36,566 nt of DNA from a virus. The notes under the pieces were generated by a model that saw only the letters and a program-made list of their open reading frames with translations, ran no database searches and was not told the DNA's origin. The position numbers and the translations under genes were made by a program. Positions 1 through 24,627 of the stretch are shown piece after piece. The stretch is taken from IMG/VR virus record IMGVR_UViG_3300012041_000044, positions 1 to 36,566 of that record; one strand, 5' to 3'. Each line of letters opens with the position of its first letter. The stretch's first letter is position 1.

Positions 1-123
1 ATCGGCCTCTGCTCCATTAGGGGCTGAGGCTCTATAGATAATCTCATAGGTAATCGTCTTATTTTCTTCCGCGACCCTATGCTCTGTATGAACAACCACG
101 GAGAGGTTAAAGAACTTGGCAAT
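1..123. repeat. Terminal direct repeat, copy 1 (identical to 36444..36566). Circular-closure overlap or short DTR
   Basis: The first 123 nt (atcggcctctgctccattagggg...agaacttggcaat) recur exactly as the last 123 nt of the window. Confidence 0.95.
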
Positions 124-8613: not shown

Positions 8614-9470
8614 TATCGAGCCCCTCCGAAGATGTCAGCAGACCGGAGGCCTCTTAGTCCTAGTGATATGCGAGCAATGTCTTCAGAGTTATCGAGGCCG
8701 GTGTTCTTTAGTGCGGCAATTGAGTTTACGAAGGTGTTCCTAAGGGATTCGTCGAACTCTCTATTAAATTGAACCTTAGCAGTATCAAGTTCATCCTTAA
8801 ATGCTCTTGCGCTTCTTGCTCTTGCAAGGTTCCCCTCGGCCCCAGCTCTTGATCTATTTAACCCTTGTACAAGGGCCTGAGCCTCCGCCGCTTTCCCTGC
8901 TTCTTCGATAGCTGATTCCTGCTGCGCCCTTGTCTGTGCAACTCCGGCTGTTCTTGACCCTTGCTCTGCGGTAACGGCTTCTTCGGCCTGCTCGAATGCG
9001 CGCCCCGTCTTCTTTAATGCTTTGTCACGCAGCTTGCCTACAGTTTGATCCGATAAACCGGTGATGGCTTTTTGACGGTCAAAAAACTGGGTCAGAAGAT
9101 CTCGCGTCTGCGCTTTCCTCGTTCCCACCTGCCCACGTAAGCTCGCAAAAGATTTCATCAATGCTTGCTCTAGCTCGGTTGCCTTTGCGGCCCTATCACC
9201 AGCAGCCGACTCGGCTTCAACTTGAGCCGCTCCTACCGCTTTATCTTCTTCTATTGCTTCAGGCCTTTGGGACGGCGAATGATATACGGTCTGAGGTAGC
9301 TGCGGTGTCGTTGGGTTATAGGGATCTTGATTGGGAGCTGGGGCAGCGGGTCTGCCTGGAAGCGGTGTATCAAGTGGCTGCCCACTAGTTTCTGGTGCTG
9401 TCGGTGCTGCCGTTTGAACGGCACCAAGTTTTGGAACTTTAGTTTTAGGCCGTAAGAATATAGTTGCCAT
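8613..9470 (-). CDS. Internal virion protein (Pro-rich N-terminus, Ala/Gln coiled coil)
   Basis: 285-aa ORF immediately downstream of the nozzle-like gene. Confidence 0.5.
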   Translation of the reverse strand: MATIFLRPKTKVPKLGAVQTAAPTAPETSGQPLDTPLPGRPAAPAPNQDPYNPTTPQLPQTVYHSPSQRPEAIEEDKAVGAAQVEAESAAGDRAAKATELEQALMKSFASLRGQVGTRKAQTRDLLTQFFDRQKAITGLSDQTVGKLRDKALKKTGRAFEQAEEAVTAEQGSRTAGVAQTRAQQESAIEEAGKAAEAQALVQGLNRSRAGAEGNLARARSARAFKDELDTAKVQFNREFDESLRNTFVNSIAALKNTGLDNSEDIARISLGLRGLRSADIFGGAR

Positions 9471-11356
9471 TAGACAGGTCCCCTTACATTCATCCCGATC
9501 TTAAATTGATGCACCTTAAACCCTTGATTCACGGTGTTCTGATTATCGAACCTAAGTTGGATGCGATGCCCCTTGGTTCTTCCAACACGGAATCGCTCTT
9601 CCTTATCATCCACATTCGCACTCCAGATCCCCACACCCCAGATCATGGTGCCCCAGACAGATGGAAGTGGATTAAGGTTGATTGTAAATACGTCTCCCGC
9701 TCCTAGGTCTCCGTCGATTCGGTAGCGCACATTCATATTATAGTCGCCGAGCTTCTCATGCCATACATAAAGCTCTCTAAAATCCTTTTTAAAGCTCTCT
9801 AGATCTAGCTCATCGCCACCAAGCTGCTTACTGAACCAGTAGCTATTAATCGCGGCACCCGCGTCATTGTAAGTAGTAGTGAGTAGTTTGTGAACGAAGC
9901 CTGTAATGTTAGATGTTCCGGCATAGAAGTTACCGCTATGAGAGATAAACTGAGAGGATTCTATCCCTGTCCACTTAGACCAACTCCCTGGCTGCCCCTT
10001 CGTCCCAAGACGGTTCAAGTCTAACCAGTAGATGTGCTTATTGAAAGTATCTGTGCCAGTAGTACAGGCGATATAAAGACGGTTCTCGAACAGCTCCATC
10101 GCAATATCTGGCCAGTAGGTTCTGGGCAGAGCGATTAGATCCGGTTCTACCTTCTCAGATAGGTTCTTAGTCCTCAGCTTTGTATCTGACGTGTTATCGA
10201 CAATAAGCCCTGACAGAAAGTGAAGACCTGTGAGCTTGTTATTTTGCCGTCCAATGAACAGACACCCATTCTCTGATAATGCGAAAGCTCTTGCGCCAAC
10301 TATTCCCAAGTTAGATGGGTTATTAATTACTGACCATGTAGCTGCATCTGTGGGATCTTCTGTGAGGATCTGATAGTTGTCGTTATCTTTGAAGGCTGTA
10401 ACGATATCGTCGTGAGAGACAACACAGATGATGGTCTCACCATCTCTGTTATTTAGTGGTTCGAAGTTCTCCACCTCAGAGACGAACGGGTTTTCGAAAT
10501 TAGTATAACGAAGTAAAGAGCGGTTCGAGGAGTCATCAAAAAAAAGCCTCTCTTTATGAAGTGTAATAGTCGTGAACGGCGTTGGCTTAGTCCCATCTTC
10601 AATAGCATCTACCCCCTCAGCTCCTGGTGCCACCGTATCTGCAAATGTTGTGGTTGTATTATCGGTGATCGATCCAATCCTTCGAAATGGGCCAGAGACG
10701 TTGGTCGACCGATAGACTCTTCGGTTATTAACTCCAGCTAATGATGATCCAACAGGGATATCGGTAAGGCCTATGGTCGATGTAACCGCAATCGTAACTC
10801 CCGCTGATACAGACCCTACCTGACCTTCAACAGCCTGAGAGTTGACGAAGCTTACGGTGTAGTAATACGTGCCTGCTTGAATACTACCCGCCGATGTTCC
10901 AGATCCTGTTGTGGCCGATGGGGTATCAATCCCCATGTTGTAAAACGATGATTCATTCTCATACTTCCATGGACCGTTCGTTCCATCTGAGGAAAAGAGA
11001 ATTCCCTGATAAACAACCGACGCTACTTTCGCCCCACTTGCGTACTTCCCTTGAGCCGATGGCACCGTGACGAAGGTCGTGCCAGATGCTCGATACATCG
11101 AGCCACCGGCCCATGCGACCATCGTTCCGTTATAAGAAGCAAGCCCGTCAATCTTATGACTACCTATTAACTGAGTGTTAAACTTCTCGCTCCCAGGACG
11201 CGTTTCTGCAGAGCCAGAGTCATCAAACACCACGTTAAGACAGTCTGGAGATTCCTGCTCTTCAATCTTAGATGGAGCATCTTTCGTATTGAGACCGCCA
11301 TCTAGGCGCTCAATCGTGAAGCGAATTCTTGTCCCTACTCGTTCGACCTTAGACAC
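9470..11356 (-). CDS. Tail tubular protein B / nozzle-like protein
   Basis: 628 aa, beta-rich with propeller-like repeats of G/S/T/N and aromatic residues. It follows the 215-aa adaptor-like gene, as in T7 gp11/gp12. The call is mainly by synteny. Confidence 0.5.
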   Translation of the reverse strand: MSKVERVGTRIRFTIERLDGGLNTKDAPSKIEEQESPDCLNVVFDDSGSAETRPGSEKFNTQLIGSHKIDGLASYNGTMVAWAGGSMYRASGTTFVTVPSAQGKYASGAKVASVVYQGILFSSDGTNGPWKYENESSFYNMGIDTPSATTGSGTSAGSIQAGTYYYTVSFVNSQAVEGQVGSVSAGVTIAVTSTIGLTDIPVGSSLAGVNNRRVYRSTNVSGPFRRIGSITDNTTTTFADTVAPGAEGVDAIEDGTKPTPFTTITLHKERLFFDDSSNRSLLRYTNFENPFVSEVENFEPLNNRDGETIICVVSHDDIVTAFKDNDNYQILTEDPTDAATWSVINNPSNLGIVGARAFALSENGCLFIGRQNNKLTGLHFLSGLIVDNTSDTKLRTKNLSEKVEPDLIALPRTYWPDIAMELFENRLYIACTTGTDTFNKHIYWLDLNRLGTKGQPGSWSKWTGIESSQFISHSGNFYAGTSNITGFVHKLLTTTYNDAGAAINSYWFSKQLGGDELDLESFKKDFRELYVWHEKLGDYNMNVRYRIDGDLGAGDVFTINLNPLPSVWGTMIWGVGIWSANVDDKEERFRVGRTKGHRIQLRFDNQNTVNQGFKVHQFKIGMNVRGPV

Positions 11357-11358
11357 GC

Positions 11359-12006
11359 TTAGATTACCCCTGAATCCGTCTCTAAAGAGCTATCTGAATC
11401 AGCCACTCGAAGTGGCCCGCCTGTATGTCTGCGCATTTGTGCGTATCGCTTCATGTTCGGGATATGGAAGTTTAACCATTTTGCTTCATACTTGGCTGAG
11501 AAGGCGTTGTTTAAGTCTTTATCAAACATCATGCTGATTACAGCATCTGCTACTGCTGAGTGGAACACCTCTGGGATATCGACGGTCGAAGATCCAGACG
11601 TAATCGCACTCTGCTGCTTTTCCACATAAAGCGTCACCGTCTCAGCTGCATTCGGGGTTGGATAGAAGATGATCTTATCGGCCCAAAGGACGTGCTCAAA
11701 AGGGGTCCCTGTTGCTGCAACGCCTGTAGGTTGGCGGGTTTCGAACTCTCTTAGTGAAATAAGCTTGGTTGGGCGCCCATCATACTGGACGCGGCGGATT
11801 CTGATGACGTTAGACGGATATGAATAACTTTGAGTGCTTGCGACTGTAGTTATCGAGGTATCAATGGCTTGAATTAGGCCAACGACGGAGACCACATCGT
11901 TACATTTCGCTTGAATGAGCTGATAGAGCTCTGTGTCCGACCAATTCGTGTCTGATTCAGCATTATGAACACGTCGAACATAGTCGGTCATCTCTGTAAC
12001 AGTCAT
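11359..12006 (-). CDS. Head-tail adaptor / tail tubular protein A-like
   Basis: 215 aa. The call rests on its position directly upstream of the nozzle-like gene and an N-terminal helical region typical of adaptors. Confidence 0.45.
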   Translation of the reverse strand: MTVTEMTDYVRRVHNAESDTNWSDTELYQLIQAKCNDVVSVVGLIQAIDTSITTVASTQSYSYPSNVIRIRRVQYDGRPTKLISLREFETRQPTGVAATGTPFEHVLWADKIIFYPTPNAAETVTLYVEKQQSAITSGSSTVDIPEVFHSAVADAVISMMFDKDLNNAFSAKYEAKWLNFHIPNMKRYAQMRRHTGGPLRVADSDSSLETDSGVI

Positions 12007-12021
12007 TTATCCCCCTGAACG

Positions 12022-12495
12022 TCATGCCTTGTCGTCCTCCTCTGGAAGGGGAGCACGATCAGGATGCTTTTTGGTCATATGAGTCTTTAAAGCAGTACGA
12101 GTTTTGAATGTCGTTCCCTCTTCGCAAATAGGACAAACATTCGCAGCTGCCTTCTCAATCTCTTTTTCTTCTTTCTCTAATTCCTTTTTAGACTTGCCGG
12201 TCGCCGTTTCTCTTTCTTCATCCGTTAGCTCAAGCGTCCAAAGAGCTTTACGAGGAGTAACGATGGTTCCATCGGGAAGTGATTCAGCCGGTGCCTTTGG
12301 CTGGGCTAAGAACCTACGAGCTGCTAAGAACTGCATCAACAGCACTTTTTCATTGTTTGGAGGCACCGTGATCGGGGCCCCACGAAACGTCTCTGTATAT
12401 GGCACTAGCTCTCGATTGAGAACCCACACTAGACGGTTAGAACCAACACCCATAGGCGCAGTTTGGTCAGTCGACTGGACGGCTGTAACTTGCAT
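12022..12495 (-). CDS. Protein with a C-terminal C2H2-type zinc finger
   Basis: CPICEEGTTFKTRTALKTHMTKKH has the form C-x2-C ... F-x5-L-x2-H-x4-H. It is preceded by an acidic/Lys-rich linker. Confidence 0.6.
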   Translation of the reverse strand: MQVTAVQSTDQTAPMGVGSNRLVWVLNRELVPYTETFRGAPITVPPNNEKVLLMQFLAARRFLAQPKAPAESLPDGTIVTPRKALWTLELTDEERETATGKSKKELEKEEKEIEKAAANVCPICEEGTTFKTRTALKTHMTKKHPDRAPLPEEDDKA

Positions 12496-12512: not shown

Positions 12513-12854
12513 TCATGAATCATCTGCAGTGATTAAAATCAGCGTGTTAGTTGCCGATCCGGTAACTGCGGTACCAAAACCAATGGTCACAAACGGAACT
12601 CCTGCGACCTGGTCAAATGACCAAATTCCACTATTCGCTGTAGCAACGGTTTGAGAACCATAAGTAAAAGCTGTAACGCCTGACTTGTAAGCTCCACGAA
12701 TCTGTAGAGTGGCGTTCCCGCTACCTGCGTTCCATGTTTGAGTGTCCGATGAGTAAACCCACATGCGTGCAGCATTCCCAACATACTGGGCAGTGCCAGC
12801 ATTCGTTGCACCAGAGGCGAAGGTATAAGTGAAGTATTTAGAGTTGTGCGACAT
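12513..12854 (-). CDS. Small Ser/Thr/Gly/Ala-rich beta protein (capsid accessory candidate)
   Basis: 113-aa ORF following the three paralogues. Its composition resembles theirs. Confidence 0.55.
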   Translation of the reverse strand: MSHNSKYFTYTFASGATNAGTAQYVGNAARMWVYSSDTQTWNAGSGNATLQIRGAYKSGVTAFTYGSQTVATANSGIWSFDQVAGVPFVTIGFGTAVTGSATNTLILITADDS

Positions 12855-12860
12855 CTAGTT

Positions 12861-13139
12861 TTACCCCTGCTTTCCAAATACAACGACCGTATAGACACGG
12901 GTGCTCACGCAGTTAGTCATTGAAATCTGACCCGTTATCTGTGTCCCGGTTTGCCCCTCGTTAATCTTCATCCTTGGAAAAGGCGCATCCGATTTAATGG
13001 TATATTGTGCAAATGAAATAGGGCCAACCCCAGGATTAAAACTTATCGCACCCGCATCCGCCGTTACATCCATAACTTTCATCATAAGATCGCCAACGCA
13101 TACATGTGGAGAAACTAGCTGACTGACTGTAGGTGCCAT
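12861..13139 (-). CDS. Small paralogue 3 of a tandem triplicated family (about 92 aa)
   Basis: The ATG at 13139 has GGGAGG 8 nt upstream. It shares DVTADAG...G...TNC...VY.VVVFGK with the two upstream genes. Confidence 0.65.
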   Translation of the reverse strand: MAPTVSQLVSPHVCVGDLMMKVMDVTADAGAISFNPGVGPISFAQYTIKSDAPFPRMKINEGQTGTQITGQISMTNCVSTRVYTVVVFGKQG

Positions 13140-13141
13140 TA

Positions 13142-13420
13142 TCAAGCCCTCCCATAAACTACGACACGATACACATCGTTTGCCGTACAGTTAGTAAGAC
13201 CAATTGCACCGATAATGGTCGTAGACGCTGGGCCCTGGTTAATCGTCAAGTACGGCGACACACCCGAAACGGAATTACTCTTAGGATATAACTGTGCTGC
13301 AAGCACTCTGTTTAGTCCCGTCTGAATTGTTCCAGTCGTTGCATCAGCAGTAACGTCCACAATCCGATATACGACATTTCCGGCATACGTTTCCAAAACT
13401 TTACTTTGTGAGAAGGCCAT
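13142..13420 (-). CDS. Small paralogue 2 of the tandem triplicated family (92 aa)
   Basis: The ATG at 13420 (MAFSQSK...) lies 4 nt after the upstream stop and has AAAGGGG upstream. It contains the motifs DVTADATTG and LTNCTANDVYRVVVYG. Confidence 0.65.
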   Translation of the reverse strand: MAFSQSKVLETYAGNVVYRIVDVTADATTGTIQTGLNRVLAAQLYPKSNSVSGVSPYLTINQGPASTTIIGAIGLTNCTANDVYRVVVYGRA

Positions 13421-13424
13421 ATAC

Positions 13425-13709
13425 TTACCCCTTTGCAAAAACAACTACGTGGAATGTATCGCCCGCCGTAACGCCCGTGAGCGACAAGACCCCAATCGAC
13501 GCGACTCCCGATGGATTAACATTCTCTAAGACCCTAGGCATTGGCTCGTCTGCTGCAACATTACTTTTAATTCCAACAAGTGCCGCATAGATTCGACCCA
13601 TGCCCGGATTAACACTTCCAGTTGCCGCGTCTGCATTTAGATCAAACATCCGAACCTTGTAGTCACCGATAACTGTATTCGTAACCACATTCGTCATTGA
13701 AAATGCCAT
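13425..13709 (-). CDS. Small paralogue 1 of the tandem triplicated family (94 aa)
   Basis: Starts MAFSMTN... and contains DLNADAATGS and LTGVTAGDTFHVVVFAKG. It lies directly downstream of the Maf-like gene. Confidence 0.65.
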   Translation of the reverse strand: MAFSMTNVVTNTVIGDYKVRMFDLNADAATGSVNPGMGRIYAALVGIKSNVAADEPMPRVLENVNPSGVASIGVLSLTGVTAGDTFHVVVFAKG

Positions 13710-13720
13710 TTTGAAACCCC

Positions 13721-14794
13721 CTAAAACATTATAATATCTTTGTCGTACTTTGGATTGGTGAAAACTTCTTTAAGATCGAACTCTATCCGATTGAGTGTGT
13801 TACCTTTGATATCTCGTTCCTCTAAGAAGCTCTTCTCTGTCATTCTGTATGGAACAAGCGCATCCTTCAATGACATGTATTGGAACTGTCGAATGTTCCC
13901 CTCTCTATAGGCCCCAAGCAGCCCTTCAGAGCAGTTCACATACCGCCCTGGAACGGAGCATGCGATGTGGTCTAGATAAAACTTGAAGTTCAAATATGAA
14001 CCCCATGTTTTCCTTAAGTTACCGTAGCAATCTGGCCATACGATGTAATTACCCATATTGTCATAATGGGTTTTATAGGAATGAAATGTGTTGTTATAAT
14101 CGAAGCAGAAATCCGCACCAACAAAGTGAACTACATCTGATCTTAAAACTACTTTGGTAAAGTAAAGACAGGCTCCAAGCGCGTTTCCACCCGTTCCTAG
14201 GTAATGCTTAAAGTTCTCGATCTTATCTAACTCTTTCCTAAATCCCTCTTCAGGGATGAAACAGTTGAATAGATTAACATCGCCTTGCCAATCCTTGAAC
14301 AATTCAGGATGTGAACAGGTATAGGCAAGAAGTTTCTGCCCCTTTGTCTTATCCCAGTACTCTTGTTCTTTGCGTCCTTCATTAATATCACGAATTACGA
14401 TGTCACCTGCATCAAGTGTCATCCAGTAGTCGGCTTTGATTCCCTCATCCATGAAGTAGCCAAAGTTATGAAGACACGAAATAACGGTGAGAGGATTCCG
14501 CATCGATTGATTCTGTTTTAGCGCGTCAATCGAGTGTTTCAACGATGGGCCTGAGCCTGCAATTATCGATGGGACATATGGAGTGACAGATCCGTAAAGC
14601 TTGCCAACTGAGTGGTCATGGAATGAGCCGAACTTCTCTTTAGTTTGCGCGTATTGCTTCAGCCAAATATCATGCCATGTCTTAATGGTAATCTGGTCGC
14701 CCTCACAAGCTCTAGCAAATATATTCCCTTGAGATGCGGGCGGGCCATCAATAAGAGGTTGGTAGATAAGGTCTATGTCTATGTTTCGAAGCAT
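13721..14794 (-). CDS. Maf-like (DUF115 / MptE-like) putative nonulosonate glycosyltransferase
   Basis: IIAGSGPSLKHSIDALK ... VISCLHNFGYFMDEGIKADYWMTLDAGD ... GTGGNALGACLYFTKVVLRSDVVHFVGADFCF matches my memory of the DUF115 core: GxGPSL, then (P/A)D(Y/F)..xxD, then G..a...A..lG...i.l.G.D. Confidence 0.55.
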   Translation of the reverse strand: MLRNIDIDLIYQPLIDGPPASQGNIFARACEGDQITIKTWHDIWLKQYAQTKEKFGSFHDHSVGKLYGSVTPYVPSIIAGSGPSLKHSIDALKQNQSMRNPLTVISCLHNFGYFMDEGIKADYWMTLDAGDIVIRDINEGRKEQEYWDKTKGQKLLAYTCSHPELFKDWQGDVNLFNCFIPEEGFRKELDKIENFKHYLGTGGNALGACLYFTKVVLRSDVVHFVGADFCFDYNNTFHSYKTHYDNMGNYIVWPDCYGNLRKTWGSYLNFKFYLDHIACSVPGRYVNCSEGLLGAYREGNIRQFQYMSLKDALVPYRMTEKSFLEERDIKGNTLNRIEFDLKEVFTNPKYDKDIIMF

Positions 14795-14810
14795 TCATTT
14801 GCCAGAGCCA

Positions 14811-14838
14811 AGGGGGCTCTCTCGCTAGAGAGCCCCCT
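14811..14838 (-). terminator. Strong hairpin (12-bp perfect stem, 4-nt loop) after the capsid-proximal genes; probably a partial terminator or RNA-stability element
   Basis: agggggctctct-cgct-agagagccccct lies in the 68-nt gap between 14863..15366 and the Maf-like gene. There is no clear U-tract on the minus strand. Confidence 0.5.
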
Positions 14839-14862
14839 AACCCTATCCCTTACCCCTAGTCC

Positions 14863-15366
14863 TTACTCGAAATTGACGATGCAATCTCCGGACTTGGCAC
14901 CCGTTGTGACAGTCTTAGAGGCTGCGCCACCAAGGTTTACACCTACTGCAATGTTTCCCGTGAGCACGCTCTGTGGGAACAGTTCAACTGCTCCGTCAGA
15001 ACCGACAAAGAATGCCGATCCAGTTGGAACGCTTGAAGCATCGCCAACCATAGGCACACGACCCTTAACAACACCCCAGAAATAGGTGCCAGTCGTAGCC
15101 GTTGCGTTGTAACAAACTCCCGCCCCGATATTATCGAAGGTTTTGGAAGTTGTCGTAACAGTTATTGAATACGGACCGGCTGATACAATCGGAGTAAAGC
15201 AGAAGCCTGGGCTAATCTGCGAATTCCCCGAGTTATAAAACAACCGATACTTTTGTCCCGCTTCGACCCGAGCTTCTCCCAGCGTGTATCCACCCGGTAG
15301 GGTAGCTACAACTGCGGAGACTGTCCCAAGGCCAGCGTCGACCATATGTCTTACGTCATTAGGCAT
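14863..15366 (-). CDS. Capsid-associated protein (decoration/cement candidate)
   Basis: 167 aa, beta-rich and rich in Gly/Thr/Val. It is immediately downstream of the major capsid gene and upstream of the hairpin. Confidence 0.4.
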   Translation of the reverse strand: MPNDVRHMVDAGLGTVSAVVATLPGGYTLGEARVEAGQKYRLFYNSGNSQISPGFCFTPIVSAGPYSITVTTTSKTFDNIGAGVCYNATATTGTYFWGVVKGRVPMVGDASSVPTGSAFFVGSDGAVELFPQSVLTGNIAVGVNLGGAASKTVTTGAKSGDCIVNFE

Positions 15367-15388: not shown

Positions 15389-16321
15389 TTAACTGGTTAA
15401 AGCCGTCATTGCGCCCTGTAAACGAGGAGAGTCGCAAATCAACTCACCCATCCAAAGGAACTTTGCAATCATCGCATCTTGATCGTGAAATTCCTGGAAA
15501 TCTTTGAATTCCCCTGGGAACTTTCGCTGAGAATGCGATACCAATTTAACGTGCTTCATATTGTGGAAAATCATGTGGCCAGAAGGCGCATAACTGTCTT
15601 CCATCACAGGGGCACCGTTACAAAGTAGATTCTTAAATCCCGCAGATGCGGAATCCGAATCTGTGTATCGCTGAGCTGGCACAAGCAACGACCAGAAACT
15701 ATTAAACAGAGTCTCTGTGGTCGTGATTAAGTTGGGTCGCTCAGTTGGAGGCTGGGATGCCGCTTCGTAGCGTTCTTGCATCTTTGCCAAGGTCAATGTT
15801 GTAGTGGTCGAGTCGATCTGTGCCTGTAGCCAGGACTCACCTGACGATGCGATTCCACCATAGGTGTTGGTCGTGCTCAAATAAACTCGGTTTCCTGTGA
15901 TCGACTGAGTATCGGTACCTGCGGAGTAGATTCCCGTACCAAAGTTATCCTTGATATCCTCTTCCGCTGCTTCGAACTCACTCTTCACATGATCGATGAC
16001 CTTGTTCTCGCCCGCATTCTTGAGCTTATCGAGTCCAGTAATGGACACGTTCAAATAATGCTGTTTCCAATCGAAGACGAGTGCCGTTTTCTTCTCATTA
16101 TAATTCGTCGATAAAACCTGACCGCCCGTATACCATCCACGTGCAGAGAAGCGAGCATACCGGACTGGAACTCGAATATCGGTTCCGCCGTCTTGAGTAA
16201 TCATGCCGCCATTCTTCTGCATGTAGAACAGTAAAGCATTTGATAACAAGACGTTATCAACTAGCTTGGGGATAAATCCTTGTCGGCTGATCGCATTGAT
16301 AGCCGTGACTGATACTGTCAT
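15389..16321 (-). CDS. Major capsid protein
   Basis: 310 aa directly after the scaffold-like gene. The N-terminal region (FIPKLVDNVLLSNALLFYMQKNG...RVPVRY...WYTGGQVLS...ALVFDWKQHYLNVSITGLDKLKNAG) resembles podovirus HK97-fold coat proteins as I recall them. Confidence 0.75.
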   Translation of the reverse strand: MTVSVTAINAISRQGFIPKLVDNVLLSNALLFYMQKNGGMITQDGGTDIRVPVRYARFSARGWYTGGQVLSTNYNEKKTALVFDWKQHYLNVSITGLDKLKNAGENKVIDHVKSEFEAAEEDIKDNFGTGIYSAGTDTQSITGNRVYLSTTNTYGGIASSGESWLQAQIDSTTTTLTLAKMQERYEAASQPPTERPNLITTTETLFNSFWSLLVPAQRYTDSDSASAGFKNLLCNGAPVMEDSYAPSGHMIFHNMKHVKLVSHSQRKFPGEFKDFQEFHDQDAMIAKFLWMGELICDSPRLQGAMTALTS

Positions 16322-17392: not shown

Positions 17393-17704
17393 TTAGGCGG
17401 GAATGGCTCTGGCACCCGGGCCTTGAGCCTGATCGGCGGGCATCGCACCCTTCGCACCCATCGCCATCTCTGGAGATTGAGCCCCTTTTTGGGGAGCTGC
17501 TTCGACTTGACCTGTTGCAATAGAGAGGAACTCTCCGTATGCAGCAGCTGCCGCATTCAAAGCCTCCATTGCTTCAGGCGGGGCCCCGGCCGATTCGACT
17601 GCCTTTTGAAGATTCATCAAAGCATCTTCAATTGCCTTCATTGCCTGTAAAGCCTGTTCTTGTGATGCTCCGCCTTCAGTAGGAACGGGCGCTTCAGCTG
17701 CCAT
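17393..17704 (-). CDS. Ala/Glu/Gln-rich helical protein
   Basis: 103-aa ORF with low-complexity Ala-rich sequence. The alternative-frame ORFs over it look spurious. Confidence 0.45.
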   Translation of the reverse strand: MAAEAPVPTEGGASQEQALQAMKAIEDALMNLQKAVESAGAPPEAMEALNAAAAAYGEFLSIATGQVEAAPQKGAQSPEMAMGAKGAMPADQAQGPGARAIPA

Positions 17705-17733
17705 TACTTACCTTCTTTCTTAAATATATTGTA

Positions 17734-17976
17734 TTACGGAAGCAACGCTTTGATCTGAACCAGAATCGCAGCAAGGCCGTCACGTTCTGCAGAAAGCGCG
17801 TCTTTCTCAACCTGCAGAGCCGCAATCTGTGCCAACAGTGCATCAATATCCGCATCAGGAAGTGCGTTGATTGCATCGATGGCCGCTTGAAACTTCGCCT
17901 CAATCGCGGCGTTTACCTCCGCAATCAGCTCGGCCTTCTTTACCACTAACACTTCAACTACTTCTGGCTTCGTCAT
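17734..17976 (-). CDS. Small Ala-rich coiled-coil protein
   Basis: 80-aa ORF with GGGAGGA upstream. An intergenic region carrying a shared motif lies upstream of it. Confidence 0.5.
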   Translation of the reverse strand: MTKPEVVEVLVVKKAELIAEVNAAIEAKFQAAIDAINALPDADIDALLAQIAALQVEKDALSAERDGLAAILVQIKALLP

Positions 17977-18060
17977 TACCCAATCCTCCCATTAAAATTT
18001 GTATGATTAGTTAGAGTACTATACTAGTTTACACTACTTTAGAACCAAAAATGACACAAT

Positions 18061-18261
18061 TTAATTAAGTTTCCCACCTAATGCCGCCTCGTATTTAGTT
18101 ATTAGTTCGTCGAGAGCTTTTCCATAGACATCCCCTTCGATAATACTGCGGGTCGCAACTAGAATTTGGATGAGGTGATACTCCCTCAGCGTGTTTGGCG
18201 CGTCCCAGATCTTCTTATCTTTCGCCAAGAGTTCACACCACTTTAGTAGCTTCACACTCAT
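18061..18261 (-). CDS. Hypothetical small protein
   Basis: 66-aa ORF with a 4-nt overlap with the upstream gene. Confidence 0.5.
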   Translation of the reverse strand: MSVKLLKWCELLAKDKKIWDAPNTLREYHLIQILVATRSIIEGDVYGKALDELITKYEAALGGKLN

Positions 18262-18983
18262 GGCGTAAAATACGCGATTGGAATAGACCTAGAAGCCTCG
18301 GCCCAACGCTCAGAGCCTGTGTAAATAATCGGCCACTCATCTTCTTTTACCAAGGCGAGCGCTTCTTTGATTTGGTTGTCTTTCCAGTAAGGCGCCTGAT
18401 CCCCATAGAACCAAAGCAGTGGAGCGTTTAAGATGAACTTGTGATGCTTCCGTAAGAGAAGCTCGGTATTCATTCCACCTGCCCTATACCCATTCGCATT
18501 CACAAACGATGGGGATGAGTACCTTCTGTCTATGAAGATCACACGAGGAAGCGATTCTATGACAGTCTCAATAAGCCTAGAGTATTTCGAAAACAGCGGA
18601 TCTCCCTGTCCAACATTCGCATACCACCAGACGTAACAAAGATCAGGTGGTAACGTCTTAAGGCATTCTTTCAGTTTGTCGAAGTCTATCTCTTGGGTGC
18701 CTTGGGTGAAGGGCTTAATCGAGAACTCGGTCTCTAAGATGAAAAGATCTGACCATGTTAGTCTCGAGAGTTCCCTGACAATCAGCGAGAACGCTTGCCA
18801 CTGCGTAAGATCATCAAACTGGGTAATCGTAGTACGTGTCGATAGACCACCCGTTATCCTCGTTAGGCCGCCTACTTTCTTCCTTAGTTCCTTGAACACG
18901 AAGACAGCATAATTGGTGCGTGCTGTGATAAATATGTTGGTTACTAGACCCGATGTTACCCAGGTCTTTACACCCGTAAACAT
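18258..18983 (-). CDS. Hypothetical protein, 241 aa
   Basis: Clean ORF with no motif I can assign. A perfect TATAAT (plus-strand 19014..19019) lies in the gap upstream. Confidence 0.6.
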   Translation of the reverse strand: MFTGVKTWVTSGLVTNIFITARTNYAVFVFKELRKKVGGLTRITGGLSTRTTITQFDDLTQWQAFSLIVRELSRLTWSDLFILETEFSIKPFTQGTQEIDFDKLKECLKTLPPDLCYVWWYANVGQGDPLFSKYSRLIETVIESLPRVIFIDRRYSSPSFVNANGYRAGGMNTELLLRKHHKFILNAPLLWFYGDQAPYWKDNQIKEALALVKEDEWPIIYTGSERWAEASRSIPIAYFTP

Positions 18984-19039
18984 CCGATCCCACCCAGGCG
19001 ATCCGACAATAGAATTATACTCTAGCCAAGGTACTAACT

Positions 19040-19300
19040 TCAGAGATCGCCCGTCTTTCTTATCTCACGTTCATGGTCCTCGTTCTCTAACGCGTAGATA
19101 GAGAATTTGCCTGCACGTGTTCCAAGCTTAAAGTAGATCACTTGTATCATGGCGAACGAATATCTCATGTTTGCGACTTCAAAGAATCGACTGAAGTTAA
19201 ATTCCTCAATCATGAAAGGCTCGCCTAGCGGTTTGGACATGAGAGATAATTTTGTATTTTTTATGACATTAATTTTATCAAGCATTGGCTGTGACAACAT
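19040..19300 (-). CDS. Small protein, paralogue of 19301..19582
   Basis: MLSQPMLDKINVIKNTKLSLMSKPLGEPFMIEEF aligns with MALSQPMIDKINQIKALKLSLMDTPLGEPFKIEEF in the neighbouring gene. Confidence 0.6.
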   Translation of the reverse strand: MLSQPMLDKINVIKNTKLSLMSKPLGEPFMIEEFNFSRFFEVANMRYSFAMIQVIYFKLGTRAGKFSIYALENEDHEREIRKTGDL

Positions 19301-19582
19301 TTACATATCTCCCAATTTCTGTAGTTCGTTATAGTGTGGTTCGTTTTGTGCTGCGGCCACTAAAAACTTACCCTGATGAATTGGACTTGTTGGCTTAAAC
19401 CAGGTGACCGAAACCACGGTGAACGGATAATACATATTGGCAGATTCTAGAAAGCTGATACTTGTAAACTCCTCGATCTTGAATGGCTCCCCAAGTGGAG
19501 TATCCATAAGCGAAAGCTTGAGCGCCTTTATCTGATTGATCTTATCAATCATCGGTTGTGACAAAGCCATATTCACCTCCAT
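19301..19582 (-). CDS. Small protein, paralogue of 19040..19300
   Basis: Tandem duplicate; see the alignment given for the neighbouring gene. Confidence 0.6.
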   Translation of the reverse strand: MEVNMALSQPMIDKINQIKALKLSLMDTPLGEPFKIEEFTSISFLESANMYYPFTVVSVTWFKPTSPIHQGKFLVAAAQNEPHYNELQKLGDM

Positions 19583-20440
19583 TTATAAAATTGTAGCCCC
19601 TAGTATATTAGCACCCTTTATCCAGACAGTAGCACTGTCTTCGAGTTGAAGCACAGCGATATTGCTATTCGATATCGTCGTTGTTCCTAATGCTGTAGCT
19701 CTTGCCCATTGTGTTTTCCATGTAGTAGAAACGGAACTTAACGTTTTCCTTGAAACTGTGAATACTGGATTTTGGACTACTGAGTTTAAGACTGCTGGCT
19801 CATTTTGAGCCTCTAATATTGTCGTTGCATCCTGTAGTACTCTCGCCTTGGTACTGTTTGTCGCTGTGTTGTTTGTAATATGAGAATTAGAGATAATTAC
19901 ATGATTAAATGCTGCTGGAATATCAGTGAGTGTTACCTTATCTTGAAAAAGTCCAGTGGCGTTCGTAGATGTCCCTAACGATTCTGAATAGTAAATCCTG
20001 CGAAATAAATCTGTCCGCATAGCTATAATTGTTGGGATTCTTATTACTGAGCTTCCAGACGTGATTGATCGAAACATGATATCCCAACTTTGCGCACCCG
20101 TTAGCGATGCCTTCGCAATTATCCCCCATGGAAGAAGCTCGCCATCGGGTGCTCCATCGTCTACCTCTGCAGTAGTAACTCGATGCTGAGCAAGCCCATA
20201 GTCAGTGGTCCCATCCGTGAGTTTTGTTTCAGTGTTTGTTCCAGTTTCATCTTTCGTCACAGAACAAGAAGCAAGTATCAGATATTCGGCTGTTCCATCT
20301 ACAGTGAACGATAGATTCACAGCAGATGTGAACGTAGAACTCGACGTTGCCGTCGGCTCGCCGAGTGCAGAGAAGTCTTGTGGAGTTTTTTTAACCGCAA
20401 ATATGGCCATCTGTCTTATAGTCGCTGTTCCACTCGCCAT
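19583..20440 (-). CDS. Beta-rich two-domain protein (receptor-binding or fibre-accessory candidate)
   Basis: 285 aa, Thr/Ser-rich. Two internal segments (TAEYLILASCSVTKDETGTNTETKLTDGTT and AAFNHVIISNSHITNNTATNSTKARVLQDAT) resemble each other and also the 118-aa neighbour. Confidence 0.5.
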   Translation of the reverse strand: MASGTATIRQMAIFAVKKTPQDFSALGEPTATSSSTFTSAVNLSFTVDGTAEYLILASCSVTKDETGTNTETKLTDGTTDYGLAQHRVTTAEVDDGAPDGELLPWGIIAKASLTGAQSWDIMFRSITSGSSVIRIPTIIAMRTDLFRRIYYSESLGTSTNATGLFQDKVTLTDIPAAFNHVIISNSHITNNTATNSTKARVLQDATTILEAQNEPAVLNSVVQNPVFTVSRKTLSSVSTTWKTQWARATALGTTTISNSNIAVLQLEDSATVWIKGANILGATIL

Positions 20441-20797
20441 TTATGGTTCCCAACTTCCGAAATACATCGAAATTGCAAAGTCTTTTGGGTCCGCTGGAAT
20501 ATCATTATCTGTGGTTGAGATTGTTTGAATGAACGGCATTCCAAAATAATCAGCAGTATCTTTCGAATGCACTTGATAATTATAAGTGTTACCAACCGAT
20601 GATTGATCGTTAATCATAAAACACCGGCCAGTATTACTACCAGTTCCAGGAGCATTATTCAGTGCCGTACAGCCAATTACGAAATACTCATCCCCAAGTG
20701 CTGCGGCTGTAAATGTGAGTGTTAGCTGTTGGATTAGTTCACTGGTAGTAGAGGCCCCAGCCACATCTTCTGCAAAAAAGCTTTCTCTCGTGGTCAT
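20441..20797 (-). CDS. Beta-rich single-domain protein related to 19583..20440
   Basis: GDEYFVIGCTALNNAPGTGSNTGRCFMINDQSS resembles the repeated segment of the 285-aa protein. Confidence 0.5.
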   Translation of the reverse strand: MTTRESFFAEDVAGASTTSELIQQLTLTFTAAALGDEYFVIGCTALNNAPGTGSNTGRCFMINDQSSVGNTYNYQVHSKDTADYFGMPFIQTISTTDNDIPADPKDFAISMYFGSWEP

Positions 20798-21102
20798 GGG
20801 AGTGAGTCCAAATGATCTTTCATTGTCTGCAAGACTGTGTGGTCACCACTTAACACCGCATTCATAATGATGAGTATCTGGCGTCTAATATTATAAGTCC
20901 GCTCGAATCGTGTATGCCTAGAATCTAGCGCTTGCTCGGCAAGAATCTCTGTCTCAACTTCTATCCACCATGCATTAAGTTCGGCTAGCGGAGGTACTAG
21001 GCCATTGAATACGACTAATGTATTATATCGATTTCCCTGAATTCTCCATTCGAGGGATTCGTATCTCCTAGAAAGAATCTGGACATAATTTGGTTCGCTC
21101 AC
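20794..21102 (-). CDS. Hypothetical protein (fibre chaperone/assembly candidate)
   Basis: 102-aa ORF overlapping both neighbours by 4 nt, directly after a fibre-like gene. Confidence 0.45.
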   Translation of the reverse strand: MSEPNYVQILSRRYESLEWRIQGNRYNTLVVFNGLVPPLAELNAWWIEVETEILAEQALDSRHTRFERTYNIRRQILIIMNAVLSGDHTVLQTMKDHLDSLP

Positions 21103-22421
21103 GCTTCAACCCTCATTGTGAAATTAGTACACGTAATAGTATCGGCGGCATCGGCACCCGCGCCCCAAGTGGCAGTTAGATCCATGGCCTCAGACGTGGT
21201 ACCAATTGTCACCGTTGCAGTAGATGACATCTCCCAAATGGTTGGACTTCCCGCAGCAGTCGCAGTTGCCATGTGCTCGAACCATCCTTGAGAAAACACT
21301 GTGGTGGTTGTACGCCCTGTCAGAGTTGCATGGATGTGCCATTCTCTATTCGCCATTGAGCCTGCTGTGGTTGTTGCCGCCGTTTGACAGAGTACCGTTG
21401 CGCCCTTCTTAATCTTGAGCTGCAAAGTAATTGGAACAACTTCAGTCGAGTACACACCCCATGCCTCAATAACTAGAGTCTTGCCTGCAAAGAAGAAGCT
21501 TGCAGGGAGTGTGAGCGTTCCGACGCCAGATCCAATTATTGTAGTCTCGCTAGTAGTGTTGGTTACTGTTGCAGAAGCAGTAGAAACATAGAGTACGCCT
21601 GGCTGATAAGTCTTAATCCCAGTATTGATAAATTGAACAACTGTCTTCTGGGTTGAGTCATACCATCCATCGCCGTCAGTTGGAGATGTTGGGGCTGCAC
21701 CACTGCCCATTCGATACATTGGCTGGCCAGTATCTGATGCACCAAAGTGACAAATCCCACCAAGCCTTAGATCGTTGAAAAGATTCGACGCTTGGCCCAA
21801 GTCTATTTTACGAGTTGTCTGGGCGTACATCTTTCTAAGGGTCGAGTCCCCTAGGATTATGTCCCCAACCTTTCCTATCTCTGTGAGTGAGTTCCCCTCT
21901 ACGGTTAAAGTGTCCGCAGCACGTGAATAGATTCTATTTGTAGGTGCTCTAAACCGGGCCTCTCCTGCTGAAGCAAATGTCATATTTCCTGAGTTTGAAA
22001 AATTAAGTAGATCAGTAGTTGCTGAGTTTTCTATTACCAAAATATCAGCAGTTTGTGTTCCGTTACCTTGGATGATGAATTGAATCTGATCTGTGTCGCC
22101 ATCGATTGTTACTTTAGCGCTAGATAGTGCCGCTGTGTTTCCAATTACGACTTCATCAGTCGTGGTAACGAGTCTGACCACAGTTCCATCATCTTGCCAT
22201 CCAGAGGCTGAAGAAAGTGATGTGTTTGCAATTGTGACAGTGTCAGTCGCTGAGTCTCCAGTAACGGTGATCCCGGTTCCTGCAGTTACGGTTAAGGTAT
22301 CGGTGGGAGAATCTGCTACGAGTGAGGTGCCAGACGTGGTCGAAATAGTGGTAAACGAGTTTTGTGCGAATACAGTAGGTGGGAACTGTACAACTTGTTC
22401 ATTTTGGCAGTCGCATGACAT
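21099..22421 (-). CDS. Second fibre-like structural protein
   Basis: 440 aa. It contains TTISTTSGTSLVADSPTDTLTVTAGTGITVTGDSATDTVTIANTS-type repeats and a C-terminal beta-sandwich-like domain. Confidence 0.6.
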   Translation of the reverse strand: MSCDCQNEQVVQFPPTVFAQNSFTTISTTSGTSLVADSPTDTLTVTAGTGITVTGDSATDTVTIANTSLSSASGWQDDGTVVRLVTTTDEVVIGNTAALSSAKVTIDGDTDQIQFIIQGNGTQTADILVIENSATTDLLNFSNSGNMTFASAGEARFRAPTNRIYSRAADTLTVEGNSLTEIGKVGDIILGDSTLRKMYAQTTRKIDLGQASNLFNDLRLGGICHFGASDTGQPMYRMGSGAAPTSPTDGDGWYDSTQKTVVQFINTGIKTYQPGVLYVSTASATVTNTTSETTIIGSGVGTLTLPASFFFAGKTLVIEAWGVYSTEVVPITLQLKIKKGATVLCQTAATTTAGSMANREWHIHATLTGRTTTTVFSQGWFEHMATATAAGSPTIWEMSSTATVTIGTTSEAMDLTATWGAGADAADTITCTNFTMRVEA

Positions 22422-22768
22422 TAACCACTGGTCTCCTCTTCACCGAAACCAGTGATATTGAGTGCATTCGCAGTGCCTGAACGGAAGAGCAATCTGCCCG
22501 TTTTATTGCTCATAAGCCAACATGTGGCCCACGAGTGAGTTGAATTCGCGGGGAGGGCCACGTCATAAGCGAGAGCATTTGATGTGGTCGCAGAGGTCCC
22601 GTTGTCATTGATGTGAATCCTATAGGTCGCAGCAGACGCGGTTACATTGCAGACTTCGACTCTTAAGATTTTGGTAAATATGAAGTTAGATTGCGCCGGG
22701 ATATAAACAATCATCGCATCAGTCGACGACGGGATATTCTGAAATAACTGCCCCCTAAATACTGGCAT
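22421..22768 (-). CDS. Small beta-rich protein downstream of the portal
   Basis: 115-aa ORF whose start overlaps the portal stop. Confidence 0.55.
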   Translation of the reverse strand: MPVFRGQLFQNIPSSTDAMIVYIPAQSNFIFTKILRVEVCNVTASAATYRIHINDNGTSATTSNALAYDVALPANSTHSWATCWLMSNKTGRLLFRSGTANALNITGFGEEETSG

Positions 22769-24627
22769 TACTTCGCTGCCTTTGCGGCTTCCGCTTGCAT
22801 GCCTTGTTCTTTGGCTTGGGCTGCTTGAGCTTGCATGCGCTTGATGACTTCTTGGTAGGCTGGCCAGTCAACGTTTTTGAGAAGTTCTTCTTGGTCAATT
22901 GCTCCTCTATCGAAGTATTGGAAGGCCGTTTGACTCTTTTGAACTTTCGCGAATGGTAAAGCAGACCCAGAGGTGACACGGACATCGGGAACCCCCTTTA
23001 TTACCACATCATGTGACTCTTCTATATCTAGCGCACCCGAACCATCGGTACGTAGGTATCGAATCTTCGCAACTTTCTGCCCGTTTTCATAAGTCGGGAT
23101 ATACAATTCTATTGCCTGAGGATATCCATCTGCATTAGTTAGACGAAACACCCTAGGCTCGGTGTAACACTGAAGGATCTTTCGCAATACCAGATCTCCA
23201 ATATCGTGCAGGAACTTTTCTAAGAAGCGGTTCTTATAACGAGGGCGAGTTTGTGACGCCTCAACGTATCCTTCGAATAGAACAGCTGATGTTGCGCCTG
23301 GCTGATTTGCGCCGCGAGATGCGTCCTGAAGACCTTGAATCCTGTCCGCTATACCAAAGCCTTGATTTAGGATCTCGAATGATTGTGGAGCAATGGCTAG
23401 ACCGGGCTCTTGCCGATACCCGTTCATGTCTTGAGTCTCTACGACAAGCCCGGGCTCATTTGTTAAGGTCTCAACATCAATCCCGCTCTGAGAAGAAACA
23501 ATGATCCTTGGATTCGCGTTCATTCTGAAACAATCAAGAATATAGCTCCATGTATAATTAACGATCTTGTTTGGACCCTTCATGTGGGTTACTTCGTTTT
23601 CCCCTGCGTACTCTCTTGGGTATCCGTAGTTTACGAGCTTAGCGATTGGGAATAGGTCGTGGTCATAGGGAATCCACTCGCCCTTCTTCTTATATCCTGG
23701 TGGTCCGTCTCTAAGGATTACTGCGTTTGCTATTTCGATATATCGGCCGGTTGGGTATTTCTTCTTTAGGACGTATTCTTTTTTCCCAAACTCATCTTCA
23801 TTTACTAGTTCTTCGAGTGTATCGTCTCTAAGCCAGCAGCAAATCTTGAGGGTGAGGGGTTCTCCCCCTTCGTCATTGGGAGCAGAATCACCGGATGATG
23901 GGAGGCGAGAGGGAGAATAAGGGTCATAATTGAGAGCTGAGCGGTGGAAGACAGTTTGATCACTCCGCATCCGCATGTTCGCAATATCTTCCTTAATCTT
24001 CTCCTTCTGCTCTGGGTATTCATGTCGTAGCTCTGCCGTGGGAACAGGTTCTGCATATATGAAGTACCTGCACTTTCTTGTACCATAGTTAATGTCAGAT
24101 GCTCTTGGGTCCCAATAGCAATAAAATGGGTCAAGTACCTTAATGCATATGTCACCTAAGCCTTGTTCCAGATCTTCATCCCATCCTACTTGGGCGTGAG
24201 CTACGTGATAGATCTTCCCATCGATTAGTTCGTCTGAAACCATTTGGTTCCACGAGTACTTATCCCATAGATTTGCAACTACTTCTTTTAAGACTTTGGT
24301 GAAGGCGTCGTCAGAGAACTCTTGGCTTGTGAACTCGAACTTAGGACGCGCATCCGTTTGAATCGCGACCTCAGTCATGATGGATGCCCACGTGATGTTA
24401 ACAACCTCGTTAAATCGCCACCTGGGGCGTTCGACTGGCCATTGTTTACCGCCGATTACAAACTCGTAATTATAACGCCAGTCGGTATCAAACTGTCGTC
24501 GGTGGCGTTTAGCTCTCGTCATGAGCTCGTTAACCATCTTGATCACGTCTTTATCGGCTTCGGGTTGGTTGGGGTTTACCCCTTCGAAGGAAGAAACAAC
24601 TGCCTCGTGCTCGCTGATAATGGCCAA
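22768..24627 (-). CDS. Portal protein
   Basis: 619 aa following the terminase genes. The N-terminal RAKRHRRQFDTDWRYNYEFVIGGKQW...FNEVVNITWASIMTEVA pattern is typical of portals, and the tail is Ala/Gln/Lys-rich. Confidence 0.8.
   Translation of the reverse strand: MAIISEHEAVVSSFEGVNPNQPEADKDVIKMVNELMTRAKRHRRQFDTDWRYNYEFVIGGKQWPVERPRWRFNEVVNITWASIMTEVAIQTDARPKFEFTSQEFSDDAFTKVLKEVVANLWDKYSWNQMVSDELIDGKIYHVAHAQVGWDEDLEQGLGDICIKVLDPFYCYWDPRASDINYGTRKCRYFIYAEPVPTAELRHEYPEQKEKIKEDIANMRMRSDQTVFHRSALNYDPYSPSRLPSSGDSAPNDEGGEPLTLKICCWLRDDTLEELVNEDEFGKKEYVLKKKYPTGRYIEIANAVILRDGPPGYKKKGEWIPYDHDLFPIAKLVNYGYPREYAGENEVTHMKGPNKIVNYTWSYILDCFRMNANPRIIVSSQSGIDVETLTNEPGLVVETQDMNGYRQEPGLAIAPQSFEILNQGFGIADRIQGLQDASRGANQPGATSAVLFEGYVEASQTRPRYKNRFLEKFLHDIGDLVLRKILQCYTEPRVFRLTNADGYPQAIELYIPTYENGQKVAKIRYLRTDGSGALDIEESHDVVIKGVPDVRVTSGSALPFAKVQKSQTAFQYFDRGAIDQEELLKNVDWPAYQEVIKRMQAQAAQAKEQGMQAEAAKAAK

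Follow-up and report, generated by a model that had tools for sequence, protein, structure and literature searches.

The window analyzed here is the whole of IMG/VR virus record IMGVR_UViG_3300012041_000044 (36,566 nucleotides), a circularly closed, complete phage assembly of 36,443 bp with identical 123-bp ends (1..123 and 36444..36566). Its head module contains a gene (13721..14794) for a minimal protein of the Maf class, which transfers 2-keto-3-deoxy sugar acids activated with cytidine monophosphate (CMP), namely pseudaminic, legionaminic and neuraminic acid as well as 3-deoxy-D-manno-octulosonate (Kdo), to serine or threonine residues of proteins. Virion glycosylation is favored here with modest confidence: the Maf-type enzyme would O-glycosylate head proteins of the phage with a CMP-ulosonate made jointly by phage and host. 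The evidence comprises the family and fold of the protein, its conserved motifs, the gene order, inheritance together with neighboring head-module genes, and the co-occurrence of a NeuB-type synthase gene or a sugar cassette.

The initial annotation had recognized a DUF115/Maf core from the motifs IIAGSGPSL, IKADYWMTLDAGD and GTGGNALGACLYF...FVGADFCF. All are present in the open reading frame (ORF) at 13721..14794(-), and the assignment was borne out by a hidden Markov model (HMM) search (PF01973, residues 58-232, E 1.9e-17; score 64 bits, cut-off 34.6). This was the sole Pfam match at E<=0.1, and Maf_flag10_N (PF20157) was not found in the protein. Because PF01973 (MptE-like, formerly DUF115/MAF_flag10) takes in both the glycosyltransferases of flagellin and the pterin pyrophosphokinases of archaea, Maf cannot be told from MptE by the match alone. 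An AlphaFold (AF2) model was built on an alignment of 23 homologues (predicted local distance difference test (pLDDT) 92; predicted template-modelling score 0.90) and compared with the PDB using Foldseek. The top match was the Maf glycosyltransferase 5MU5 (E 1.2e-10, 290 columns, template-modelling score 0.51 on the query) and the second the archaeal MptE kinase 8SD5 (E 8e-6, ~200 columns), with weak matches to SteA and thiamine pyrophosphokinase. Sequence profiles ranked the two in the same order, more weakly (Maf, E 3e-4; MptE, 0.037). For hhalign, a profile of canonical Mafs was made from long PF01973 proteins, PF20157 being present in three of them; the phage family aligned with it across 264 columns (probability 99.85%, E 1.4e-30), phage residues 31-317 corresponding to columns 212-480 of the ~625-column Maf profile; the alignment thus starts at template column 212, and the phage protein ends ~40 residues past the aligned core.

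Motifs common to the phage family and the canonical Mafs are GxGPSL, pD...iD, sGG and vGxD. In the alignment of the 23 homologues (47-64% identity), 57 columns are invariant and cluster at GSGPSL, SCLHN, D122/D128/G130, GGN and GxDFCF; D228 is invariant too. That polar residues stay invariant at this divergence speaks for an enzyme and against a scaffold. In 5MU5, the residues aligned with D122 and D128 are D318 and E324; in the canonical Mafs, the two fall on the pD...iD motif. The invariant aspartates D122, D128 and D228 are candidate counterparts of the essential conserved aspartate of Shewanella Maf-1 and Maf-2 (D247/D261).

If the protein is not a glycosyltransferase, its PF01973 nucleotide-binding fold would serve another reaction, for instance (pyro)phosphoryl transfer as in MptE, thiamine pyrophosphokinase and SteA, with a small molecule or a capsid protein as a possible target. 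The Pfam family is named for the MptE kinase, that kinase is the second-best fold, SteA and thiamine pyrophosphokinase also match weakly, and Maf and MptE lie close in sequence significance. Against this, the Maf fold match is better and ~90 columns longer, the 264-column alignment with canonical Mafs extends beyond PF01973, and a kinase of pterin or thiamine would give no reason for the strong co-occurrence with NeuB described below; the scanned window ORFs include no folate or pterin gene. This alternative is considered the least probable of the three weighed here. An MptE-type pterin pyrophosphokinase in particular does not fit: the protein has 357 residues with an extra conserved region, pterin genes were not found in the scanned ORFs, and 8SD5 is just the second fold match. 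Archaeal MptE (6-hydroxymethyl-7,8-dihydropterin pyrophosphokinase) shares the Pfam family and the GxGPS nucleotide-binding motif with the phage protein; unlike MptE (~230 residues), the phage protein has an additional conserved region of ~125 residues that aligns with Maf, sits outside any pterin context and co-occurs with NeuB. Because of the fold, the coverage and the profile-profile match, the product of 13721..14794 is predicted to be the catalytic core of a Maf and not an MptE kinase.

Nearly every gene of the window lies on the minus strand. In the direction of transcription, small early genes are followed by the sugar cassette (31575 to 26960), the large terminase gene, the portal gene and a 5.3-kb accessory insert; then by the scaffold-position gene, the major capsid protein (MCP) gene, the gene for a 167-residue protein (p167), the Maf-like gene, three small paralogues (parA, parB and parC) and the gene for a 113-residue protein (p113); and finally by genes for a 157-residue protein and an SU10-type adaptor, the tail genes and an M15 peptidase gene. 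The absence of flagellar context claimed at the outset holds, the neighbors being capsid genes and no flagellar family being found in any scanned ORF of the complete window genome.

This gene order is widely kept. In 80 IMG/VR loci anchored on the Maf-like gene, a near-invariant series was found of scaffold, MCP, p167, Maf, one ~89-residue par, a ~116-residue gene, one to three small genes, adaptor and a ~630-residue protein. Anchoring was then switched to the MCP so that sampling would not favor the Maf-like gene, and at least 581 related capsid loci were found in IMG/VR. Among 60 MCP-anchored loci with adequate downstream sequence, 49 had Maf, every one of these had p167 as well, and par was found in 47; two further loci had an ORF of 86-89 residues, undetected as par, in the par slot. 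Neither p167 nor par ever occurred without Maf. All three were absent from the remaining 11 loci, which have more distant MCPs and in several of which the MCP gene is followed by one small ORF and then the adaptor. Judged by this distribution, p167, Maf and par form one inherited module between the capsid and connector genes. The initial annotation had proposed surveying related phages for a DUF115 gene together with the paralogue family: the two do co-occur in relatives, and the triplication is confined to the window phage, relatives having a single copy.

The family is large. A word-indexed protein search returned 1,334 Maf-like relatives at E<=0.001, each standing for one 90%-identity cluster, and an HMM search of 1.84 billion representatives returned 1,342. 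The best 120 of the 1,334 are full length, and many lie on contigs of 33-40 kb. Distant relatives include canonical proteins with Maf_flag10_N and MptE-like domains as well as fusions of MptE-like domains to methyltransferases; a cluster look-up of these distant relatives gave no functional names. Four relatives (P0178, P0188, P0190 and P0195; 505-539 residues) carry PF01973 fused to a C-terminal S-adenosylmethionine-dependent methyltransferase, similar fusions occur in BFVD proteins of uncultured phages, and the arrangement suggests that sugar transfer and methylation may be coupled in these proteins. In the GenBank phage collection (50,697 records), tblastn detected no Maf-like gene even at E<=10 and megablast of the region found no nucleotide-level relatives; no cultured carrier of the gene came to light. 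The MCP is 22-30% identical to the MCPs of Myxococcus phages Mx8 and Mx9, Stenotrophomonas phage BUCT555 and the Brucella Tb and Pr phages, in none of which was the Maf-like gene matched. BFVD gave just uncharacterized 'MptE-like' proteins of uncultured phages (12-16% identity to the Maf-like protein). A contig scan gave two contigs of metagenome-assembled genomes only, from a Saccharibacteria bin and a Glaciecola bin; both are probably binned phage contigs, and no host call was therefore made.

The 12-bp hairpin reported between the p167 and Maf-like genes exists, with a perfect GC-rich stem and an AGCG loop at 14811..14838(-). It sits 17 nt 5' of the Maf-like start codon, leaving no space for a promoter, and the intergenic sequence around it folds at -31.7 kcal/mol. 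Of 50 relatives, 29 have a strong GC hairpin in the corresponding intergenic gap, often with a T-run. The window's hairpin, having no T-tract, was not called in a terminator scan. It is probably a partial terminator or attenuator of late transcription, in which case high expression of the MCP and p167 and lower expression of the downstream genes would be expected; p167, encoded upstream of the hairpin, would be co-expressed with the MCP. The Maf-like gene was also considered as a 'moron', and this was rejected: it has no promoter of its own, belongs to the core genes and is fixed in position.

A working Maf-type transferase might instead act on a host protein (flagellin, pilin or S-layer) or on a non-structural phage protein, and may mask the receptor on infected or lysogenic cells. 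In favor, every characterized Maf acts on flagellin (PMC11339370; bioRxiv 10.1101/2023.12.03.569772), and the NeuB and cassette genes occupy a variable, moron-like slot beside the terminase gene. Lysogenic conversion would be permitted by the temperate character of many relatives: a Pfam census of the 10 kb 5' of NeuB (L166-L224, ~19 loci, 146 ORFs) gave nine Phage_integrase genes together with ERF, SSB, DnaB and methylase genes, and because of the nine integrases many clade members appear to be temperate. No integrase was recognized in the window phage. A host acceptor nonetheless accords poorly with a gene that is fixed in the late head operon without its own promoter and that forms one heritable block with the genes of two head-module proteins, missing where those are missing. 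In addition, the phage protein lacks a flagellin-binding domain, the window has no flagellar gene, and modification of flagellin late in infection would be of little effect, glycosylation preceding export. A host or non-structural acceptor is thus judged unlikely, if the least unlikely of the three alternatives.

Virion glycosylation as proposed above also draws on the sugar genes of the clade. A NeuB gene (PF03102) was first found, by way of a par homologue, directly 5' of the terminase gene in locus L087. Among 41 informative Maf-anchored loci, 31 have NeuB beside the terminase gene, five have a cassette of the window type alone and five have neither, so that NeuB or a cassette is present in ~36 of 41 (~88%); one of the five with neither (L013) proved NeuB-positive when a longer flank of the same contig was available (L186). 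With NeuB as the anchor, the terminase of the clade was found in 46 of 47 loci and Maf inside the 10-kb flank in 39. In three loci (L225, L230 and L237), a PseB-like dehydratase, a cytidylyltransferase, a class-III aminotransferase and a GNAT acetyltransferase occur in addition to NeuB. L225 was confirmed by Pfam (PseB-like, CTP_transf_3, Aminotran_3, GNAT, NeuB and Maf), and there the NeuB gene separates the small terminase gene from the large one. NeuB and PseI equivalog models are both matched by the phage NeuBs (E 1e-23 to 1e-48, all under the cut-offs); these retain the metal-binding and catalytic motif positions, which we take to be the catalytic Lys/Gln, the metal-binding histidines of SDH and EKH, and the SAF-domain Arg of Neisseria meningitidis NeuB. 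The lineage has a single weak match among the GenBank phage records. One phage NeuB (L087:1161-2252) carries a ~40-residue insertion with two CxxC pairs, zinc-ribbon-like, that is absent from the other phage NeuBs.

The window belongs to a sub-lineage (also L004, L006, L007, L010 and L083, with Mafs 45-58% identical to the window's) in which the cassette is present and no NeuB was seen. In a further relative (L008, Maf 53% identical) neither was found, and in L085 only a methylase was seen in the short stretch visible 5' of the terminase gene; in NeuB-positive phages, Maf is at most 46% identical to that of the window. The gene ahead of the window's terminase gene directly abuts it, leaving empty the slot that holds NeuB in most relatives. 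That slot appears to be a hot spot for accessory genes. In L225 (1872-3014 and 8179-9495) it holds genes for a papain-family protease, a ParB-N6/N4 DNA methylase and a Dam methylase, and in L085 (2352-3584) for a cytosine methylase and a protein of the metallo-beta-lactamase fold.

The window's cassette had been described as PseB/PseH/PseF-like. A PseB-like dehydratase, a PseH-like GNAT acetyltransferase and a cytidylyltransferase of the CMP-sugar type are indeed present, and the resemblance to the pseudaminic acid (Pse) pathway is only partial. The dehydratase scored 299.7 bits with TIGR03589 (PseB; cut-off 407.75), and its best PDB match was 2GN4, the C6 dehydratase of uridine diphosphate N-acetylglucosamine (UDP-GlcNAc; E 2.2e-66). 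The acetyltransferase scored 60.7 bits with TIGR03585 (PseH; cut-off 93.1). The cytidylyltransferase exceeded the Pfam cut-off for CTP_transf_3; its nearest NCBIfam models were KdsB subfamilies, under the cut-offs (PDB 6OEW, E 1.4e-13). The aminotransferase is nearest in the PDB to glutamate-1-semialdehyde aminomutase (GSAM) and C-6' sugar aminotransferases and is not of the DegT/PseC type. The cassette plausibly makes a 2,4-diacetamido-trideoxyhexose precursor and CMP-activates an ulosonic acid. Its gene content indicates that it cannot by itself carry out condensation with phosphoenolpyruvate or hydrolysis of the nucleotide sugar. No PF03102 match to NeuB/PseI was found in scanned window ORFs of >=100 residues, a NeuB tblastn gave nothing below E 1, and NeuB was sought without success in the early and tail regions and among the accessory ORFs that separate portal from scaffold. 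A hydrolase of the PseG/NeuC type was likewise not found in the scanned window ORFs, and PseG was not seen in the relatives examined. The initial annotation's view of a self-contained system therefore fails, the complete genome having neither a NeuB/PseI synthase nor a PseG/NeuC-type hydrolase.

It could also be that Maf acts on virion proteins and that the cassette is unrelated to it, the donor being host CMP-Kdo or CMP-activated pseudaminic or legionaminic acid (Leg) and the cassette serving to remodel host lipopolysaccharide or capsule. CMP-Kdo is made by Gram-negative cells generally. Such a separation would suit the contrast between a core Maf and a variable cassette and NeuB, the few relatives with neither, a cassette without a synthase to feed nonulosonate, and the use of CMP-Kdo by CbMaf (PMC11339370). 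It agrees less well with the cassette sharing its locus with the relatives' NeuB and co-occurring with NeuB in three loci, with the CMP-type cytidylyltransferase being the activation step that a Maf donor needs, and with NeuB or the cassette being present in ~88% of the informative relatives. Its probability is considered low, slightly below that of a host acceptor. All three alternatives are less consistent than virion glycosylation with the co-inheritance, the operon position and the association with NeuB.

The mechanism proposed for virion glycosylation is as follows. The Maf-like gene would be transcribed late, by read-through of the hairpin after the highly expressed capsid and cement genes, and for this reason the enzyme would be present in catalytic rather than structural amounts. 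Head proteins would be O-glycosylated in the cytoplasm, before or during assembly, the likeliest acceptors being the proteins co-inherited with Maf (p167 and the par protein or proteins) or the MCP. The donor would be jointly built. Most relatives would supply a NeuB-type synthase, and from their gene content they appear to supply the synthase only; if NeuB-positive relatives lack a cytidylyltransferase, activation of the donor would depend on the host. The window's sub-lineage would supply the PseB-like dehydratase, aminotransferase, GNAT acetyltransferase and cytidylyltransferase and borrow the condensation step from the host. Maf enzymes take CMP-N-acetylneuraminic acid (CMP-Neu5Ac) and CMP-Kdo besides the Pse and Leg donors, and because of this promiscuity clade members without any sugar gene are plausibly functional (PMC11339370; bioRxiv 10.1101/2020.06.03.131540). 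Maf-2 requires a small protein encoded directly downstream of it (bioRxiv 10.1101/2023.12.03.569772), and par might alternatively be an acceptor-recognition adaptor, as GlfM is for Maf-2.

The candidate acceptors were examined in turn. Where present, the p167 gene invariably comes directly after the MCP gene. One member of the p167 family matches PF09956 (Phage_cement_2, E 2.7e-5), and this match together with its position makes p167 likely to be a cement or decoration protein; the p167 profile gave nothing significant against the PDB. The three tandem paralogues reported downstream of the Maf-like gene are genuine (35-37% pairwise identity, BLASTP E 1e-13 to 1e-15). Their description as Ser/Thr-rich survives weakly, at 13.8-19.6% Ser+Thr against a genome mean of 13.4% and up to 26% in other proteins of the genome. 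The fourth Ser/Thr-rich protein said to follow them is p113, with 25.7%. With an alignment as query, 502 par homologues were found in the database, and with parB as a single sequence, parB itself only. The AF2 model of par is a seven-strand beta-sandwich (pLDDT 84.5). It had no significant PDB match, the best (E>=0.065) being cupin-like domains and beta-sandwiches of phage tail-fibre tips, and no claim is made from these. No family match was found for p113, and neither PHROGs nor NCBIfam gave a match for the Maf-like protein, p167, par or p113.

Several points weigh against virion glycosylation by this enzyme. The Maf-like protein has neither the N-terminal Maf domain nor the C-terminal helical/tetratricopeptide-repeat (TPR) acceptor-binding domain, which leaves acceptor recognition unexplained, and the PF01973 superfamily also includes pyrophosphokinases. 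On the donor side, the window has no NeuB/PseI or PseG and its aminotransferase and MocA-like gene misfit the textbook Pse pathway, and in the 10 kb upstream in the ~19 NeuB-positive loci no cytidylyltransferase or epimerase was among the 25 most-matched families. On the acceptor side, the paralogues do not stand out in Ser/Thr content, par has a predicted all-beta fold where GlfM is a four-helix protein, and the position of par downstream of the presumed attenuator argues against a high-copy decoration protein. Catalytic activity, glycosylation, the virion protein as acceptor and the identity of the sugar donor are inferred.

Like the flagellin Mafs (Magnetospirillum 5MU5, Clostridium botulinum CbMaf, Shewanella Maf-1 and Maf-2), the phage protein has the PF01973 core and the shared motifs, with a Maf as its best fold match, and its gene is associated with genes of nonulosonic-acid biosynthesis; as with Maf-2 and GlfM, a small gene lies directly downstream. 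Unlike them, the phage protein is about half the size (357 residues against about 600-800), lacks the Maf_flag10_N and C-terminal helical/TPR domains of characterized Mafs (PMC11339370; bioRxiv 10.1101/2023.12.03.569772), and is encoded in a head-morphogenesis operon with no flagellar context; its par neighbor is a predicted beta-sandwich rather than a four-helix bundle. From the Pse and Leg pathways (PseB-C-H-G-I-F; LegB-C-H-G-I-F), the window has PseB-like, PseH-like GNAT and PseF/NeuA-class proteins and the relatives have the NeuB/PseI type. The full set was found in no phage examined; the aminotransferase is of class III rather than DegT, the MocA-like gene is extra, and the equivalog scores fall under the cut-offs.

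In mycobacteriophages, Freeman and colleagues are said to have described in 2023, in Cell Host Microbe 31:1216, virion structural proteins glycosylated by conventional nucleotide-hexose glycosyltransferases. The transferase genes again lie beside capsid genes, and the acceptors are virion proteins, as they would be here. The present case differs in having a Maf-type enzyme, an implied CMP-ulosonic-acid donor and podophage-like phages with P22/SU10-type portals; glycosylation, demonstrated there, is proposed here. To our knowledge, phage virion glycosylation has been documented only for conventional glycosyltransferases in actinobacteriophages, and the only role known so far for Maf enzymes is the modification of flagellin. 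A search of the literature turned up neither a phage Maf/DUF115 protein nor a phage NeuB in such a setting, nor any virion modified with nonulosonate. The proposal joins protein glycosylation by Maf to the glycosylation of phage virions, both already known, and is not a new kind of system.

If correct, this would be the first sialic-acid-like protein O-glycosylation on a bacterial virus and the first natural non-flagellin substrate of a Maf enzyme, providing a new class of acceptor and a compact enzyme for engineering protein 'sialylation'. It would also represent a new virion surface chemistry, in which negative, host-mimicking sugars could affect adsorption, aggregation, immune recognition and grazing, and it would explain why NeuB-type synthases are common in this clade yet almost absent from deposited phage genomes. 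The system is widespread, judging from the 1,334 database relatives and the at least 581 IMG/VR capsid loci. The wider picture is held more tentatively, at somewhat short of even confidence: an uncultured clade of ~33-40-kb phages, many of them temperate, would carry a module resembling capsid sialylation, with a minimal Maf between a cement protein and a beta-sandwich partner and with phage donor genes (NeuB and/or dehydratase, aminotransferase, acetyltransferase and cytidylyltransferase), and their particles would be coated in acidic nonulosonic or ulosonic sugars.

Table 1. Features of the window, in order of transcription within the genome (positions are those of the window).
Feature	Position	Strand	Basis
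PseB-like UDP-GlcNAc 4,6-dehydratase	30598..31575	-	PF02719, E 1.8e-81
Short GFO_IDH_MocA-like oxidoreductase	29870..30601	-	PF01408, E 1.4e-7, residues 54-107 only; weak sugar 3-dehydrogenase matches
CTP_transf_3 cytidylyltransferase (KdsB/NeuA/PseF class)	28957..29646	-	PF02348, E 6.6e-11
Class-III (GSAM-like) aminotransferase	27768..28991	-	PF00202, E 6.3e-38
GNAT N-acetyltransferase, PseH-like	26960..27526	-	PF13302, E 1.4e-13
Large terminase (TerL)	24953..26272	-	phrog_2, E 3.4e-37
P22/SU10-type portal	22768..24627		
Major capsid protein (MCP)	15389..16321	-	phrog_9953, E 3.9e-51
p167, capsid-proximal, candidate acceptor, 167 aa	14863..15366	-	Position; Phage_cement_2 match in one relative
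Maf-like protein, 357 aa; putative transferase of ulosonic/nonulosonic acids, minimal Maf type (PF01973)	13721..14794	-	Pfam, fold, profile match
parA, first tandem paralogue, ~89-aa family	13425..13709	-	Family alignments
parB, second paralogue	13142..13420	-	36.6% identity to parA, E 1.6e-15
parC, third paralogue	12861..13139	-	35-37% identity to parA/parB, E 1e-13 to 1e-14
p113, Ser/Thr-rich, 113 aa	12513..12854	-	Composition; ~116-aa gene at this position in relatives
SU10-type adaptor	11359..12006		PF24175

The accessory insert (17393..22768, 5.3 kb) separates the portal gene from the scaffold gene. Its three largest proteins (440, 285 and 241 residues) have homologues solely in contigs of the same phage (L001 and L002) and gave no Pfam or PHROG match. 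Two of them exceed all other proteins of the genome in Ser/Thr content (21099..22421, 440 residues, 26.6% Ser+Thr; 19583..20440, 285 residues, 26.0%) and could be fibre-like decorations and additional targets of glycosylation. A second tandem duplication is also present (19040..19300 and 19301..19582; 86 and 93 residues, 54% identity, E 1.8e-30). No tRNA genes were found in the window.

Within the structural module, 12022..12495 encodes the Lys/Glu-rich 157-residue protein, which has a weak match to a C2H2-type zinc finger (E 1e-3) and a detected homologue in about a dozen relatives only. L001, an ENA assembly of the same phage, differs from the window by one base across the 21 kb compared. 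In L001, the 628-residue gene at 9470..11356 is called as 701 residues and the next gene as 181 instead of 285 residues; the single-base difference and the altered gene calls imply that this tail-region gene is polymorphic at its stop codon (9470..9472) or close to it.

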